From: Candidatus Latescibacterota bacterium
GTDB taxonomy: Bacteria; Latescibacterota; UBA2968; GCA-2709665
NCBI GenBank assembly: GCA_965116875.1
Contig: OZ220733.1
Span: forward strand, 5,312,001 to 5,376,000
Length of the DNA: 64,000 nt
Reading direction: 5' to 3'
Of this stretch, positions 2,545-39,237 are shown piece after piece. Within the stretch, counting starts at the first letter, position 1. Each line of letters starts with the position of its first letter. The translations under genes were made by a program, and so were the position numbers. The notes under the pieces were generated by a model. That model had not been told where the DNA came from and did not search any database. It was given only the letters and a program-made list of their open reading frames with translations.

Positions 2545-3242
2545 GATTACGCTCCTTCAGGGACTTCCGATATTTCCTGGTCGCATTCCGCACTTAATAC
2601 ACAATGCCAATATAGATTATTGGCTCTCCCGGTGCAAGGTATTCGAGAGTTCGAAAGTTGATACCTTCAGGAATGTCGCCCGACCGACGAGTTCCAAATC
2701 AGACGCCGCTGTGGGAACGCCTGTGGTTTTGAAGGGCGTCGACGATGCACTGCTGTCCAAGAACCGCGGGATTCCTGGAGATGACGTTCGAAAAGTGGAT
2801 TCCTTTCGCGATTATGGACGGCTTTGACCTCGACAACGAAAACCGGGTTGCCATGGGTTCGCGTCTGTTGCAGGGCTTCTCATTCTGAACGGAGTCGAAG
2901 CATCGTTCGCCGCTTCCGTACCGCGCTGGAGTCGGACGTGCTGCCTCTAGGGCGTCGCCATGTGCAGATCGCGGGGGATGATCCCATGCCGCAGTAGATC
3001 CTTCGTCGGCCTGGGGCTTTCTCTACATGAGAAACTGGTCTCAGGCGAAACGGATGCGATTCCTGGACGTCGCACCCAGGCCTCCTCTGGATGACAGTGG
3101 GAAGCAACGTGCTCGGCTATCAGCCAGCATGTCATTCAGAGCGGAGCGAAGATCTGGCCGGTTCATTTCGCCAATGGTTATTGCAAGTCATGTCATTCGG
3201 AGCGTAGCGAAGAATCTCCCGTCTACTATGTTAAAAGTCAAG

Positions 3243-3630
3243 AGAGAACGACAATTTGTCGGCCTCAGATGCTGGGGTTACTCTGCCATTGTTCGTACCG
3301 ATGCGACGCGTTCATTCCGACACGCTCGACGAGCGTGTCGGAATGAACGAAACAGACGTCATTAAGCCTTGAATGGGTTCCCTGCCACACGACAGCAGTA
3401 GGGACCGGGCGTACGGTGTTCTCTTTTGGATGGCCTCAGATGCTCGGTCAACGCTACCAGTCTACTATTCGTAGTCGCCATTTGCAGGCGCTAACATGCC
3501 ATTTATCCGGAGCCGTGCGAGAGCTGGGGGCGAGCAAACTTCATCGACGTAGTACCTGACGGTCTACAAGACGGGAGGCGCCGTCCCCCGTGCTCCACGA
3601 TCAAGAGCGGTGTGGGCGCAGGCATCTGAT
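3243..3630 (-). ncRNA. putative bridge/seek RNA region of the IS110 element
   Basis: ~400-nt non-coding region downstream of the transposase; 3568-3577 reads CTCCCGTCTT on the minus strand, identical to the reconstructed target, inside a GGGGG/CCCCC-closed internal loop; RNA boundaries inferred. Confidence 0.7.
3309..3349. repeat. perfect 20-bp-arm palindrome
   Basis: CGTTCATTCCGACACGCTCG-A-CGAGCGTGTCGGAATGAACG. Confidence 0.95.
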
Positions 3631-3642
3631 GTGACCGGGTGT

Positions 3643-4713
3643 TCAGCCGGCAAAGAGTCCCAACTGATAGGGCTCTCCATTCAGCAAGATCCTGCGCATG
3701 CGGCAAAGCAGGGATCTGGCAACTCCGACGATGGCGTGTTTACCACCGGCACGAACCCTGATGCGTTCATATTTTTCCTGCATCGCGGGATCTTTCTCGA
3801 TCAGGCGCCAGGCCGCCTGGATGAGTAACGCACGCACCATCGGTTTCCCCTGGCGGGTGATACGCCCGTGCCTCACATGCTCTCCCGACGAGTGCTGGCC
3901 GGGCGTCAGCCCCACGTAGGCCGCCAGCGTCCGTGCGTTTTTGAAGCGCGCCACATCCTGCAGCTCCAGGAGGATCTCCATGGCCGACAGGCATCCCACG
4001 CCCGGGATCGACGTCAGGATGGCCACGCGGTCCCGATACGCATCTGTTTCCGCAAGCTGCCACAGCATCCTCGTCTGGCGATGCACCTGCTCACACAGGT
4101 CAGCGTATTGCTCCAGCATGTTCTCGAAGCTCTCCTGCGCATACGGATCTTCCAGATGCACATCGCCAAGTGCGGTCACGAACTTGCCAGACCACCGCCC
4201 TGTCGATTCTTCGGGCATGTCGATCCCCATATACCGCAACTCGGCCTTGATCCGTAGTTGCACACGCACCCGATCCTTGATGAACTGCCGGCGGCGACGA
4301 CTCACCTGGCGGTGGGATCGCTCTTGAGGCGTTGGCACATAGATCGATGACAAGAGGTCCTTCCTCAGATAATCCGCCAGCTTGAAGCTGTCGATGCGAT
4401 CCGTCTTGACCAGGTTCCCACTCTGGCTCGGGATCAGGCTCGGCGGCGTCACACAAGCATCCACACCCATATCGACGAGAAAATCGTACAGCCCGAACCC
4501 GAAATAACCCGCTTCATACACCGCACAGATCTTCTTCGCTTCGCCGTACCGACTCAACAGCTTATCGATCGCCTCTGTTGTGCCTGCGATGCGATTGGAG
4601 AACAGTCGCAAACCATCCTCGTTGAGAATGGTGATGTGCCACTGCTTCCGATGCATGTCGATGCCCACGAAAAGATCCTTGCCCCGCCACGCTTCAACGG
4701 TATACCTTGCCAT
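3643..4713 (-). CDS. IS110 family transposase/recombinase
   Basis: DEDD RuvC-like motifs FVGIDMH, VYEAG, KTDRIDS; C-terminal SIPGVG...AYVGLTPGQHSSG; ATG 4713 with AAGGAGG. Confidence 0.95.
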   Translation of the reverse strand: MARYTVEAWRGKDLFVGIDMHRKQWHITILNEDGLRLFSNRIAGTTEAIDKLLSRYGEAKKICAVYEAGYFGFGLYDFLVDMGVDACVTPPSLIPSQSGNLVKTDRIDSFKLADYLRKDLLSSIYVPTPQERSHRQVSRRRRQFIKDRVRVQLRIKAELRYMGIDMPEESTGRWSGKFVTALGDVHLEDPYAQESFENMLEQYADLCEQVHRQTRMLWQLAETDAYRDRVAILTSIPGVGCLSAMEILLELQDVARFKNARTLAAYVGLTPGQHSSGEHVRHGRITRQGKPMVRALLIQAAWRLIEKDPAMQEKYERIRVRAGGKHAIVGVARSLLCRMRRILLNGEPYQLGLFAG

Positions 4714-5047
4714 CACGAGCCTCCTTGTGAAAGTGTTTGTTGTGGACAACGGCAAAGTATACTCTCACAAGCTGAGGCTCAACTTCATTTTAACATAGTG
4801 ACTTCTGGCTCGTACGTGTAGCATATGGCCTTCATAGACAAATTCGTGCGCGGACGCTCTGCCAGACTTTCCGCCACCTCTCTATAACATTCGGCCGAAA
4901 GTGTAAAGGCCACATTTCGCCAATGGTTGTGGGCGAATTTTCCATCCGTATATTTCGCACACTTTCGCATCTTTCGTTGGTAACCACACCCGCTTTTGGA
5001 CAGGTGTGTCGACGATGAAAGATGCATTGTAAACAGTAGGCAATAAC

Positions 5048-6403
5048 TCATCTCACTCGAATCATCAATTCGCCGAGGACCTCCAGGCCTTTCTTAAGAA
5101 TTGGTTCTTCCGTTTCGCTCACCGCTTCCGTCATCGGATCGACGGGTACGGAAGGCGTATACGCGCTTCTTGACGACCCGACGAACTCCTGAGACGCCGG
5201 GTCACCCTTCAGGGTCCCGTTGAAGATCTTCTGTCTGGTGCACTGAAATCCGATTCCTGTATTCGGCATCCGCATCGTGTAGACCGAACCCTCCAGTCCC
5301 GCCATCTTCGTTCCCACGACAGTTGCTCGATCCAGTGCGTCCAGACTGATCGTCAGACCCTCGCCCGCGCTTCCCGTCCAGCGGTTCACCAGAATCACCA
5401 GAGGTCGTTCGTACTGCCATTCTCCTCTCGGTCTCACCCGGCTTAGAAACGGCGCTCCGTTGCGAGGCACGGTTCGCTGATAGACCCGTTCCCGGTCGAT
5501 CAGGCGCCCGATGATTCCCTCGACGACCCCCGTATTGCCCCCGCCGGCTTTGCGCAGATCGAGAATCAATCCGGCAGTGTGGCGCAACGCTTCGAGTGCG
5601 ACATCGAAATCCTCCAGGAGTTGACGGCCCGTCAGGGTTCCATTGATGACGACGTATCCGATTTGGTGATCCAGAATCCGGAAATCGAGATTCGATTGGT
5701 ATTCTGATCTGTACGCGACATCAAATTGATCGGGCGGAATGGTGACCGGTCTGGTCTCGCCTCGGTCGCTGAACTCGATTATCCTGGTCTCGTTCCGATA
5801 TCCCGCCAGCACCTTTCTCAGCGTCCAACCCCTAATCTCGTCGCCGGCCTGGACAAAGGAACGCCCCATCCGCTTATGAACGGCGTCTTCGATCGGCATT
5901 CCATTGAAACGAAGGACCTCCATCCCGGGATGCAGACCGGCGGCATCGGCGGGAAATCCCGGTCGGATTCCCGTTACGATTGCCCTGCCGCCAATCCATT
6001 CCGCCCAGACGTCCGTCCGCGAAGGCGCGATGTTCGGAGAAGATGCCGTATGCGTGTTCAAATGAACGTGGTCGTCGTACAGCTCCTCCAAGACCCTCTC
6101 CAGCTGTGCGATGAATTCCGATTTCGTCGAAATCGTTCGGATCTGAGGCCGGTATATCTCTCTGACTCGATCCCAGTCGGTCCGCTTTTCGTCAAAATAC
6201 GCATAGTCCGCACGGAACGTCTCCCACAGAAAATCGAAGTCCTCTTCGTACTGTTGTGAAGTCAGGTCGTTCTGCGCGAACGCGATCGAACAACTCAGGG
6301 AATTGAACGTCAACAGCACGCAGAAGAGGAATACAAGGAGCATCGATTCCGGTCCGGTGTCATGTTCCAGGTGCGCACCCTCGATACCGCGGATCCCTTG
6401 CAC
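5048..6403 (-). CDS. S41 family peptidase with PDZ-like domain
   Basis: LILDLRKAGGG, WTGSAGE, VVGTKMAG motifs; signal-peptide-like segment from Met at 6343 (likely true start). Confidence 0.85.
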   Translation of the reverse strand: MQGIRGIEGAHLEHDTGPESMLLVFLFCVLLTFNSLSCSIAFAQNDLTSQQYEEDFDFLWETFRADYAYFDEKRTDWDRVREIYRPQIRTISTKSEFIAQLERVLEELYDDHVHLNTHTASSPNIAPSRTDVWAEWIGGRAIVTGIRPGFPADAAGLHPGMEVLRFNGMPIEDAVHKRMGRSFVQAGDEIRGWTLRKVLAGYRNETRIIEFSDRGETRPVTIPPDQFDVAYRSEYQSNLDFRILDHQIGYVVINGTLTGRQLLEDFDVALEALRHTAGLILDLRKAGGGNTGVVEGIIGRLIDRERVYQRTVPRNGAPFLSRVRPRGEWQYERPLVILVNRWTGSAGEGLTISLDALDRATVVGTKMAGLEGSVYTMRMPNTGIGFQCTRQKIFNGTLKGDPASQEFVGSSRSAYTPSVPVDPMTEAVSETEEPILKKGLEVLGELMIRVR

Positions 6404-26351: not shown

Positions 26352-26992
26352 CACAACTGTCCAATAACCGGTTTGATTCACTACGTAGGCCGGGAAAGTG
26401 CGCAAAATAAACGGATGGAAAAACCGTCCACAGCCAGGGCGAAATGTATCCTTTACAAGTGAGCGCAAATGCTATGCAGGGGAGGCCGATAGGCTGGCCA
26501 GTTGTTCGCGCACAAGTTCTTCTACAAAGGGCGCGTACTAAACGTACATTCGAGAATAAGGGAGATTCTTCGCTGCGCTATGATTGGCATATCTTGCGAT
26601 AACACATTGGCGAAACGTGTCGGCCAGGTGACGGCAAAAACTGTCATCCAGAGGAGGCCTGGGTGCAACATCCACGAAGTGCATCGGTTTCACTTGACGC
26701 CAGACTTTCATCCAGGGCCGGCACTCAGGCCGACGAAGGATCTACTGCAGCATGTGATTATCCTTGTGCGGTTTTCACATTTCGATACCTGAGAGGCAGC
26801 ACGTGCGCCACCAACGCGGGACGGAAGCGGCGAACGATGCTTCGACTCCGCTTAGAATGCCAAGTGTTGAAAAAAACGCGAACCCCTGGCAACCTGATTT
26901 TCGTTAACCAGGTCAAACCCGTCCAAAATCGCCAATAGAATCCACTCTCCGAACCTCATCTCCAGGAATCCCCCGGTTCTTGGACAGCAGTG
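26352..26992 (-). mobile_element. MITE family 1 copy B (641 bp)
   Basis: TIRs CACAACTGTCCAATAACCGG / CCGGTTCTTGGACAGCAGTG (17/20); degenerate 9-bp flanks GGTCAATAA / GGGCAATTT. Confidence 0.85.
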
Positions 26993-35974: not shown

Positions 35975-36611
35975 CACTGCTGTCCGAGATCGGTGAGATT
36001 CTCAGAGAAGAGGTCGGGCAAGAGGCTTCGATTGGCGATATAGTACGGGCTGAACCTGGATCATGCAAATCAGGTTGCCATGGTTTCGGTCTTGTTGCAA
36101 TTCATGTCACTCAGATTGGAGTCGAAGCATTTTTCGCCGCTTCCGTCCCGCGCTGGGGCCGGACGTGCCGCTTCTCAGGTATCGATACGTGCAAACCGAA
36201 CGGGGATAATCCCATGCCGCAGTAGATCCTTCGTCGGCCTGCTCTGCATGGCAGTGTGCTCTTACGTGTAACGGACGCGTTTCGCCGACGTTGTACGCAG
36301 GCCTCCTCTGGATGACAGTATTGGCGAAGGTGTGGGCTACGCGTTTCACCAGTGGCTATTGCGAAACATGTCATTCTGAGCGGAGTCGAAGAATCTCCCG
36401 TATTCTCGATTGGACGTGTCGCACATGCCCGTTGAAGACGAACCTGTGCGCGGACGTCTGGCCAGTCTTTCGGCCTCTTCTGAAGTACATTCGGGCTAAG
36501 GTGTGAAGGATACATTTCGCTAATGACTGCGGACGATTTTTCCATCGTCCGGACACTTCGCGCACTCTTGCGAATTTCGTAGTGAATCAAACCCGTTTTT
36601 GAACAGGTCTA
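35975..36611 (+). mobile_element. MITE family 1 copy C (637 bp)
   Basis: starts CACTGCTGTCC, ends TTTTGAACAGGTCTA; degenerate flanks CTTCACTAT / CTTCGTGAT; colinear with copies A and B. Confidence 0.8.
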
Positions 36612-38569: not shown

Positions 38570-39237
38570 CACTTCTGCCCAAGAACCGTGGAACTCTCAG
38601 AAATATGGTTCGAAGAATGGCTTCAATTCGCGATCATTGACGTGTCTGACCGGGAAACCAGGTTGTCATCGGTTCGTGTTTGTTGTTACGCATGTCTTGC
38701 TGAGCGGATTCGAAGGATCTTTCGCCGCTTCCATCCCGCGCTGCAGGCAAACGTGCTGCCTCTCAGGTATCGACACGTGAAAGTCGCACTGGGTTGATCC
38801 GATGCTGCAGTAGATCCTTCGTCGGCCTGAAGGCTTCCTGTGGATTACAGCGGGAAGCCACGTGCATGACAATCGTAAAACATGTCATTCTGAGCGCGCT
38901 GGCCTCCTCAGGATGACATGTTCTGCGAAGGTGTGGGCCCAGCGTTTCGCCAATGGTTATCGCAAAACATGTCAATCCGAGCGCAGCGAAGAATCTCCCG
39001 TATTCTCGATTGTACGTGTCGCATATGGTCTTTGTAGATGAACTTGTGCGCGGACACATCGACAGGCTCAGGGCAAGCCCTCAGGATGACAGTCTTAGTG
39101 AAGGGAGGACCGACTCGTCTCGCCAATGACTCTGGACAATTCTTCCAGCCGTTCATTTCGCGTATTTTCGTGACTCTTGTAGTTTATCAAATCCCTGAGA
39201 TGCGGACGACAGTCCTCGTGCAATCCCTGGTTGGTCG
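38570..39237 (+). mobile_element. MITE family 1 copy D (right end approximate)
   Basis: starts CACTTCTGCCCAAGAACC; shares internal blocks AGATCCTTCGTCGGCCT and GCGAAGAATCTCCCGTATTCTCG. Confidence 0.75.

Follow-up and report, generated by a model that had tools for sequence, protein, structure and literature searches.

Positions 3243–3629 of the window (the whole 64,000-nt stretch of DNA that was analysed) are the 3' non-coding end of an IS1111-type element of the IS110 family, with the RNA on the minus strand. Taken as a whole, this end probably consists of an ordinary two-loop guide RNA and a lineage-specific 171-nt add-on, which is not a third loop and which bears a constrained palindrome.

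To place the element, we analysed its transposase, its ends and its insertion site. The transposase matched the Pfam families PF01548 (73.1 bits; DEDD RuvC-like N-terminal domain) and PF02371 (98 bits; C-terminal domain), and it matched NCBIfam NF033542 (IS110 family RNA-guided transposase) with 222.7 bits against a cut-off of 140. A GL-P----S(T)G sequence in the C-terminal domain is the motif of the IS1111 group, according to the available text of PMC11187229; the translation reads GLTPGQHSSG at this place, and residues G268, L269, T270 and P271 were invariant among 56 relatives. The parts of the element and of its site are as follows.

3643–4713, minus strand: transposase gene, 356 aa, with the ATG at 4713
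3225–4801, minus strand: body of the insertion sequence, from six genomic copies aligned end to end
3223–3224, no strand: left copy of the CT core dinucleotide, from occupied versus empty site; the right copy is at 4802–4803
3225–3236, no strand: ACTATGTTAAAA, the right-end copy of the subterminal inverted repeat, with TTTTAACATAGT at 4788–4799 as its partner
3225–3260, minus strand: terminal 36 nt of the right end, with a conserved CTTGAC; aligns with the last 36 nt of the relative L048
3000–3222, no strand: left part of the multi-copy repeat that holds the element; the two flanks adjoin at unoccupied copies elsewhere; the right part is at 4804–5000

The element is 1,579 bp long, counting one copy of the shared CT dinucleotide, which is AG in the transposase orientation. 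Comparison of the copies gave an empty site of CCCGT-CT-TCT, and the occupied site equalled the empty site plus the element and a CT, with no longer duplication. Contigs from three runs (X1, X2 and X5) joined 3222 to 4802, skipping 1,579 nt with 2 nt ambiguous at the joint. The subterminal inverted repeats were present in 6/6 copies, and their length of 12 bp lies within the 7–17 bp range of IS1111 elements; two relatives, L048 and L049, share the same 14-nt repeat at their ends. The non-coding sequence measured 418 nt downstream of the transposase gene versus 88 nt upstream, so that the longer side is downstream, as in the IS1111 group. The Pfam and NCBIfam matches, the copies and the ends thus bore out the original prediction of an IS110-family non-coding RNA end in this region. 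The six copies, which sit in two related target types, all bear the extra block described below; they are close kin, with at least 86% protein identity in this genome, and conservation among them rests on about three lineages. The CTTGAC near the right end recurs ahead of the end in many relatives and is a candidate −35 box of a promoter that would be formed by the joined ends; these read TTGACT, 17 nt, TATGTT, which is no more than a match to the consensus.

An ordinary two-loop bridge (seek) RNA, itself predicted from sequence, is encoded in the 3' end. Two covariance models, R1 and R2, were built from relatives and located its loops.

3525–3589, minus strand: target-binding loop; model R2 (from 55 relatives), 31 bits, E 7.2e-8
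3568–3577, minus strand: 5' target guide CUCCCGU-CU-U, identical in sequence to the plus-strand target TCTCCCGT-CT-T
3537–3548, minus strand: GA-AG-UU, the target loop's 3' guide region, placed by alignment with the family consensus CCAC-G-N-AG-NN-UG
3446–3522, minus strand: donor-binding loop; model R1 (from 72 relatives), 37.7 bits, E 5.2e-10
3457–3468, minus strand: donor guide, core and handshake positions AUAGU-AG-AC(UGG), copying the junction of right end, core and flank

With filters off, the donor loop was the sole R1 match at E up to 10 within 3000–5000. Both predicted loop structures are backed by covariation among relatives: the R1 structure had 79.9% standard pairs in the relatives versus 31–49% when the partners were slid, and the R2 structure had 86.2% versus 35–54%. 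In the target loop (3589–3525), the 5' guide would spell the target through the CT core, and it matched the reverse complement of the core plus 7 nt of flank at 9/9 positions; the match of the 3' guide to the flank was 2 nt plus the core only. Copies c3–c6 carry CUACCGUCU as the guide, and the targets of c4–c6 are TCTACCGT-CT; the guide changed from CUCCCGU to CUACCGU in step with the target change in c4–c6. In the donor loop (3522–3446), the 3' guide would spell the element's right end and the core, followed by the initial bases of the target. This donor guide is a 12-nt direct repeat of 3218–3229 (92% identical), and no match to the left end could be made for the 5' guide of the donor loop.

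The same guide rule was examined across the relatives. The 5' guide matched the reverse complement of core and flank at at least 8/9 positions in 47/79 elements, whereas 200 re-pairings as a control gave a mean of 2.1 and a maximum of 8. The motif GAAYAG-N-AG-NN-TGG was found in 88/160 relatives' loci, and in 85 of these 88 an end ATAG-N-AG with the same N lay downstream, the search being keyed on the variable base of each relative's own donor motif. On these 79 elements, a clear guide rule was shown for this clade of two-loop guide RNAs, which are encoded 3'. A closing helix between the start of the non-coding sequence and the stretch after the donor loop was not general in the relatives (median z 0.1; 4/53 below −2), and its z in this element was −1.48.

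The region had been described as unusually long, with an apparent extra module, and both points held. The non-coding end measured 418–419 nt versus a median of 216.5 nt in 78 relatives, exceeding 74 of them, and the distance from donor motif to end was 232 nt versus a median of 54. In 55/78 relatives this distance was at most 63 nt, and none of the 78 had sequence similar to the extra unit at this place; the other 23 had 80–267 nt between donor motif and end, unrelated in sequence to the unit. After removal of 171 nt, the distance here is about 60 nt, near the 58 nt of L048, which has the same ends. The excess length is therefore one discrete module, without which the spacing is that of the relatives. 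The module and the sequences related to it are listed here.

3261–3431, minus strand: extra unit, 171 nt; its distal 28 nt (3261–3288) repeat 3432–3459, and the remainder has no detectable relative
3432–3459, minus strand: proximal 28-nt repeat copy, including the 13-mer at 3432–3444, directly 3' of the donor loop
3622–3629, minus strand: 8-nt complement of the 13-mer, right after the stop codon
3309–3349, no strand: palindrome, perfect over 20 bp around a 1-nt centre; the part of the extra unit that is under constraint

The extra unit is flanked by the donor loop on one side and by the terminal 36 nt of the element on the other. As claimed from the sequence, the 13-mer GGCCTCAGATGCT occurs twice (3261–3273 and 3432–3444) at a spacing of 171 nt, and 3622–3629 (GCATCTGA) is the exact reverse complement of 8 nt within it. 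A scan of the window for the 13-mer with at most one mismatch gave 2 matches versus 0.10 expected, and 2/100 shuffles reached 2. In the minimum-energy fold of the whole 3' end, the pairing with the proximal 13-mer copy grew to about 12 pairs. Similarity had also been claimed to continue beyond the 13-mer; one 28-nt block did so, with 22/28 positions identical (79%), but a second pair of 15-mers was at chance level, as 22 15-mer pairs with at least 10 identities were found between the units versus a mean of 18.7 (maximum 48) when one unit was shuffled. The observed score of the 3' strands of the two units was reached by 0/2000 shuffles, and the alignment of the 5' strands was no better than 1050/2000 shuffles. 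Elsewhere the two units showed no detectable similarity (z 0.33 global, 0.62 local), and Tandem Repeats Finder returned nothing for the repeat. We considered the unit as a decayed copy of the whole guide RNA and rejected this reading: the 171-nt period fits it, and sequence outside the 28-nt block gave it no support. For a candidate second inverted repeat, between the left end of the element (GCCTCAG) and the 13-mer, the left end could be placed in 2 loci only.

The extra block travels with the element. Both units were kept in 6/6 genomic copies, and contigs from two further studies span the extra unit. Cover of 3286–3409, within the extra unit, in run X3 was below that of the rest of the element, and no contig among the mapped contigs joined across the unit; a form without the unit is neither supported nor opposed by them. 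The repeated 13-mer would be the stretch 3' of the donor loop, and the block (3431–3261, 171 nt) would have come in behind this loop, ahead of the final 36 nt, with about 28 nt duplicated by the addition. As a result of this duplication, one 13-mer keeps the old loop-side neighbour and the other the old end-side neighbour.

The palindrome had been predicted as perfect over 20 bp, and this was confirmed: the arms 3309–3328 and 3330–3349 are 100% complementary, with 1 nt between them. Its centre base is A in three copies and T in three, and in copy c6 both arms have changed together from C-G to T-A, a compensatory change. Only 1/41 positions of the palindrome differed, versus 28/154 4-fold sites (p 0.012), and this 41-nt palindrome is the sole clearly constrained part of the extra block. 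Outside the hairpin, this copy and c3 differed at 12/129 positions of the block versus 28/154 4-fold sites (p 0.04), and some constraint on the block beyond the hairpin is possible on this count. The donor loop of c2 and c3 differed at 1/91 positions. The fold of the block beat all but 2/200 shuffles (z −2.85), mostly owing to the hairpin. From these results we tentatively infer that the palindrome could be a structural hairpin in a long transposase-plus-guide transcript, acting as a stability or processing element 3' of the bridge RNA; it may instead act at the DNA level or have no role. Two terminator candidates were tried and rejected. There is no U-run after the palindrome, as a classical terminator would have, and a weak terminator-like site at 3261–3249 was not kept in the other copies.

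The extra module had been proposed to be a third binding loop or part of an alternative guide RNA, through which the recombinase would reach another DNA partner. We regard this as very unlikely, and the unit does not resemble the guide loops of this family. With filters off and E up to 10, R1 gave no match to the unit and the best R2 match had 5.1 bits (E 1.4, noise), although models of this kind would not pick up a loop in which the inner hairpin has expanded to a large, branched domain. The proposed shape AUGACGU-CU/AAUGGC-AG stood in part: both strings are present on the minus strand (3362–3354 and 3290–3283), with CU just ahead of the hairpin and AG behind it as in the family's loops, but the CU core was not kept, being UU in 5/6 copies and CU in this copy only. 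The 3'-side AG follows the hairpin at about 26 nt rather than the 8–10 nt or so of the family's loops, and the unit is without the conserved GAAYAG-N-AG motif. Immediately 3' of the supposed core, the bases of the two strands have changed in concert (G/C here, A/U in each of the five other copies), as they would in a retargeted guide pair; this paired change is a single event, for which an RNA helix between the strands is an equally good explanation. The retention of the block in all copies and in the contigs of other studies agrees with a working loop, and a truncated target-loop RNA that cooperates with the bridge RNA of another IS110 element, as given in the available text of a preprint, makes extra guide RNAs conceivable. 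A second partner was not found in the 5.45-Mb genome, however: the proposed 15-nt site had 0 matches at up to one mismatch and 12 at up to two, versus about 10 by a rough chance estimate, and the real targets have 9 and 13 exact matches. The 14-nt strands of the unit had 0 exact matches, with 2 and 4 matches at one mismatch versus 1.75 expected, and no insertion of this element was located at any such site, all six copies being in the target types of the proximal loop. It is also quite unlikely that the unit works within a natural bridge RNA as an accessory domain, either a branched third guide loop whose partner is absent from this genome or a hairpin switch. In the case of a switch, the 5' strand 3636–3622 would pair with one or the other copy of the 13-mer and so close the two-loop RNA alone or together with the extra domain, and this alternative closing would tune recombination.

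Other readings give the unit no part in guiding. It might be a functionless, tolerated relic of a partial tandem duplication or local expansion, with a palindrome kept perfect by self-templated correction rather than by selection, which we consider improbable. The addition is bracketed by the 28-nt repeat, its 171-nt period is about the length of the target loop, the donor loop and the following stretch together (3602–3432), and 23/78 relatives have unrelated sequence of 80–267 nt at the same place; in addition, the block outside the hairpin changed between c2 and c3 at a neutral-like rate (11/129 versus 16/173). Yet the hairpin is unchanged, bar its centre base, between lineages that differ at 18% of 4-fold sites, and self-correction alone should still pass paired changes. 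The whole unit, too, differed at only 13/170 positions versus 28/154 4-fold sites between this copy and c3 (p 0.007), and it was retained through retargeting to a second repeat family. Far less probable still, the unit could be of foreign origin: a small mobile element, or a piece of some other element, inserted into the right end. An 11-nt inverted repeat (3239–3249 and 3418–3428, 91% complementary) roughly brackets the unit, whose interior is without similarity to the proximal unit, but this bracketing repeat was not retained in copies c2–c6 and copies of the unit or palindrome in the genome were found only within the six element copies. The unit showed no similarity to the 160 relatives' loci (best match 13 nt, E 0.46), and no Rfam family matched it. 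With no solo copies and no conserved bracketing repeat, we rejected the unit as a small mobile element.

Searches for the block in families and closer relatives gave little. Rfam over 2600–5400 yielded nothing relevant, only microRNA-like noise on the palindrome, and nothing relevant at the loci of 11 relatives. No similarity was found between the extra unit and the long extensions of relatives. A single-protein scan of genome contigs for the DNA of closer relatives gave none, as did viral contigs, and among the matches listed in a metagenome scan none was above 58% identity. A DNA search of 61 related genomes returned end fragments only (in G008 and G010), and a protein search of 168 genomes of the phylum returned only G058 and G083. 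Relatives of the transposase at 67–92% protein identity sit on contigs of about 1.4–2.0 kb.

The add-on to the two-loop guide RNA bears on how such RNAs vary. Bridge and seek RNAs are under development for programmable recombination, and their natural architectural variants reveal what the scaffold can tolerate: the stretch between donor loop and element end accepts large additions (80–267 nt in 23/78 relatives). In this lineage, a perfect 20-bp hairpin has been kept at that place through a change of target to a second repeat family. Should the hairpin govern the stability or processing of the RNA, it would offer a simple natural means to set the dosage of the guide RNA; if it does nothing, the element is an ordinary insertion sequence with a passenger.

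Among the closest known systems are the IS1111-group elements ISEc11, ISPa11 and ISKpn4, which have a 3' seekRNA (Siddiquee et al., 2024; PMC11187229). As far as the available text of that report goes, this element shares with them a DEDD transposase with the GL-P----SG motif (here GLTPGQHSSG), subterminal inverted repeats, a long non-coding region downstream of the gene, an RNA in which the top-strand match is 5' of the bottom-strand match, and insertion into a repeated extragenic sequence. The IS1111 seekRNAs described there are 82–96 nt in the short form and 154 nt in the long form, measured for ISEc11, unlike the non-coding end of 418 nt here; the extra 171-nt block with its perfect 20-bp hairpin, placed after the guide RNA, is a further difference from these three elements as they are presented in that text.

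The bridge RNA of IS621 is similar in several features, by the available accounts (Durrant et al., 2024, PMC11208160; Hiraizumi et al., 2024, PMC11208158). It has two internal loops and a CT core, a left guide of the same sense as the CT-core strand, and a right guide complementary to the CT-core strand, followed by the core and two handshake positions. Unlike in those accounts of IS621, the RNA here is 3' of the gene on the strand opposite to the CT-core strand, long inverted repeats and the extra unit are present, the right target guide matches 2 nt only, and the left guide of the donor loop was not found. ISPpu9, with its ssr9 module, is likewise an IS110 element that targets repeated extragenic sequences, with AG/CT at its ends and, downstream of its transposase gene, an additional non-coding module (Pares-Guillen et al., 2025; PMC12288879). 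In what is available of that report, ssr9 has its own copies of both end boxes, occurs solo in the genome and forms its own circles, whereas the unit here is without a left-end-like box and without solo copies.

Expanded IS110 loci also carry extra non-coding sequence on the same strand beside the transposase module, bracketed by a repeat of sequence from the element itself (Hu et al., bioRxiv 10.64898/2026.08.14.744561). The arrays in the available part of that preprint have at least 95% identity and units of at least 50 bp, and the repeat here is 28 nt at 79%; unlike those arrays, no donor half-site was found at the borders of the unit, which is old and fixed and moves with the element.

The element belongs to the IS1111 group, of which it is a new member, and its guide RNA has the canonical two loops. 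Its transposase carries the GL-P----SG motif, and the gene is followed by a long non-coding region; taken with the other properties of the element given below, these are the features set out for the group in section 6 of Siddiquee et al. (PMC11187229). The genome contains six full copies, and this copy showed approximately 89% DNA identity to the other five (c2–c6). At the point where the locus holds the element, flanking-repeat copies without an insertion read CCCGT-CT-TCT, indicating an element of 1,579 bp including one CT. In contigs from three public runs, 3222 was joined to 4802, the joint being ambiguous by 2 nt. The gene and ends are as follows.

4713–3643, minus strand: transposase, 356 aa; both IS110-family domains and the NCBI model for IS110 family RNA-guided transposases passed
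3225–3236 and 4788–4799: 12-bp subterminal inverted repeat; same ends in all six copies

The element is hosted by a repeat of about 400 bp (3000–3222 and 4804–5000) with many genome copies. A 2-kb query of the genome gave 81 matches, mostly to the flanks of the element, and unoccupied repeat copies lie in the window at about 26360–26739, 36228–36601 and 38945–39001. A dense array at 1.774–1.793 Mb holds c2 and c3, approximately 0.7 kb apart. The motif GTCATTC-N-GAGCG-N-AGCGAAGAATCTC precedes the insertion point. In G010, a genome of the same genus, at least four contigs ended in the left end of the element and four in the right end, 43–59 nt deep, and the copies in that genome evidently escaped assembly.

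The guide RNA was defined from 160 loci encoding transposase relatives (transposase identity up to 58% among the matches listed). GAAYAG-N-AG-NN-TGG was found downstream of the gene, always on its strand, in 88 of them. We searched each locus for an end of the form ATAG-N-AG, with N fixed to the variable base of its own donor motif, and located one with matching N in 85 of these 88. Of the two bases after the donor-motif core, the first agreed with the base that opens the flank in 57 of 78. A second loop, approximately 100 nt upstream of the donor motif, contains a 9-mer that is the reverse complement of the core plus 7 flanking bases. At least eight of the nine positions matched the flank in 47 elements out of 79, of which 23 were perfect; over 200 re-pairings of guides with flanks, a mean of 2.1 and a maximum of 8 elements reached that level. 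Covariation supported both hand-drawn loop structures, with 86.2% standard pairs in the target loop (slid partners, at most 54%) and 79.9% in the donor loop (at most 49%). Covariance models built from the relatives were then run over 3000–5000 with filters off.

3525–3589, minus strand: target loop (target-loop model, 31 bits, E 7.2e-8)
3446–3522, minus strand: donor loop (donor-loop model, 37.7 bits, E 5.2e-10)
3577–3568, minus strand: 5' target guide CUCCCGU-CU-U, equal to the plus-strand target
3468–3460, minus strand: donor guide AUAGU-AG-AC, a repeat of the junction at 3222–3230

The match of the 3' target guide was limited to 2 nt plus the core, and no left-end guide was found in the donor loop. 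Copies c3–c6 carry the guide CUACCGUCU, and c4–c6 sit in a different repeat reading TCTACCGT-CT, indicating that guide and target were altered together; c3 combines the old target with the new guide (8/9 match). As judged from these sequences, c4–c6 look like a natural one-base retargeting of the guide. They form a near-identical trio (G000:C1, this genome, 3382695–3384286, 3391291–3392882 and 3415440–3417031), and their host repeat, TCTACCGT-CT-TCCCTCT, differs from the first.

The original prediction of an unusually long 3' end was borne out: it measures approximately 418 nt (median of relatives, 216.5) and exceeds that of 74 of 78 relatives. The donor motif lies 232 nt from the end; the median of this distance across the 78 non-identical relatives is 54 nt. 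The 13-mer GGCCTCAGATGCT indeed occurs twice on the plus strand, at 3261–3273 (distal) and 3432–3444 (proximal), with an 8-nt reverse complement at 3622–3629, and a perfect 20-bp palindrome is present at 3309–3349. The claimed similarity beyond the 13-mer held for a 28-nt repeat (79% identity) and not for the remaining sequence: the second 15-mer pair was at chance level (22 pairs versus a mean of 18.7), and no similarity was detectable in the rest of the two 171-nt units (z 0.33 and 0.62). Between the units, the 3' strands were more alike than in every one of 2000 shuffles, and the 5' strands no more alike than chance (1050 of 2000 shuffles). Tandem Repeats Finder reported nothing on the repeat.

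Taking out exactly 171 nt (the extra unit, 3261–3431) leaves approximately 60 nt between donor motif and end; in L048, a relative with the same ends, the figure is 58 nt, and 3260–3225 align with the final 36 nt of that element. Thus, each 13-mer copy retains the neighbour it had ancestrally: the donor loop beside the proximal copy, the terminal 36 nt beside the distal one. Two observations point to an origin of the extra unit by duplication or expansion within the non-coding end: the 28-nt repeat brackets it, and the period equals the combined length of target loop, donor loop and the stretch after them. No donor half-site was seen at its borders. Spacings of 80–267 nt also occur in 23 of 78 relatives. 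Among nine examined with at least 140 nt, L096 and L176 carry perfect stems (15 and 19 bp) that no shuffle reached and that are unrelated in sequence to the extra unit; the hairpin-bearing unit is a lineage-specific variant. The long 3' extensions of L073, L089, L096 and L176 share the motif UCCGACG-R-N-CUAC ... CCCAUUCUC, for which Rfam held no family; in L096 and L176 it sits in the loop of the long perfect hairpin.

In copy-against-copy comparisons covering about three lineages, with 4-fold sites as the baseline (28/154), this copy and c3 differed at 13/170 positions of the whole extra unit (p 0.007), at 1/41 of the palindrome, its centre (p 0.012), and at 12/129 of the rest (p 0.04). Between c2 and c3 (4-fold, 16/173), the rest differed at 11/129 (p 1.0) and was indistinguishable from neutral; the donor loop differed at 1/91 (p 0.008) and was clearly constrained. 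In c6, both palindrome arms were altered jointly, from C-G to T-A. Position 3329, the centre, carries A in three copies (this one, c4, c5) and T in the other three (c2, c3, c6), differing even within the near-identical c3–c6; repeated palindrome flipping or a mutation hot spot would fit this pattern. Together, these observations indicated that the palindrome is the constrained part of the extra unit, the remainder being weakly constrained at most.

The extra unit had been proposed as a third binding loop specifying a second DNA partner, which we consider very improbable. Neither loop model scored it: the best match (5.1 bits, E 1.4) was one of 15 comparable noise matches. Both models could overlook a loop with an inner hairpin expanded into a branched domain, and the predicted fold of the unit suggests such a domain. 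A shorter, different string occupies the place of the family's donor motif, the supposed CU core before the hairpin reads UU in five of six copies, and the AG lies approximately 26 nt behind the hairpin. In this copy the base after the supposed core is G on the 5' strand and C on the 3' strand; the other five have A and U there. Such a paired change is expected of a retargeted guide pair, but a plain RNA helix would show it likewise, and it represents one event. The composite site of the supposed partner had no genome match at up to one mismatch and 12 at up to two, versus approximately 10 by a rough chance estimate; the real 13-nt targets gave 9 and 13 exact matches and 75 and 174 at up to one mismatch (TCTACCGT type: 13 and 174). 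The 14-nt strands of the unit matched elsewhere in the genome at chance level.

A classical terminator was rejected, as no U-run follows the hairpin. Joining the ends creates a promoter-like TTGACT-17-TATGTT, which fits, by sequence match, the family's junction promoter as given in section 8 of PMC11187229. A transcript from it would pass through gene, guide RNA and extra unit. Our best guess is that the hairpin either stabilises this long transcript or, lying 3' of the guide RNA, serves as a mark for processing; the palindrome may instead act at the DNA level or have no role. At the left end (4714–4801, minus strand), GAGCCUC near the start of the 5' untranslated region is complementary, by eye, to GAGGCUC, which sits at the ribosome-binding site immediately ahead of the ATG. 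A longer version of the pair, UUGAGCCUC and GAGGCUCAA, occurs in L048, and CUGAGGC within the 13-mer could pair with the left-end stretch (both by eye). The left-end pairing may possibly serve translational control.

The donor-motif arrangement in the clade is that of IS621, whose right donor guide, core and handshake positions follow in the same order in the account of PMC11208158. A 2026 preprint (bioRxiv 10.64898/2026.08.14.744561) describes IS110 loci that expand by tandem non-coding repeat units (n = 468); by the calling criteria it gives, the extra unit here would not be included. The phrase 'third loop' occurred in none of the papers listed by one literature search. The nearest extra non-coding module described in an IS110-family element is ssr9 of ISPpu9, which, as presented in PMC12288879, carries end boxes of its own and also occurs as solo copies, unlike the unit here.
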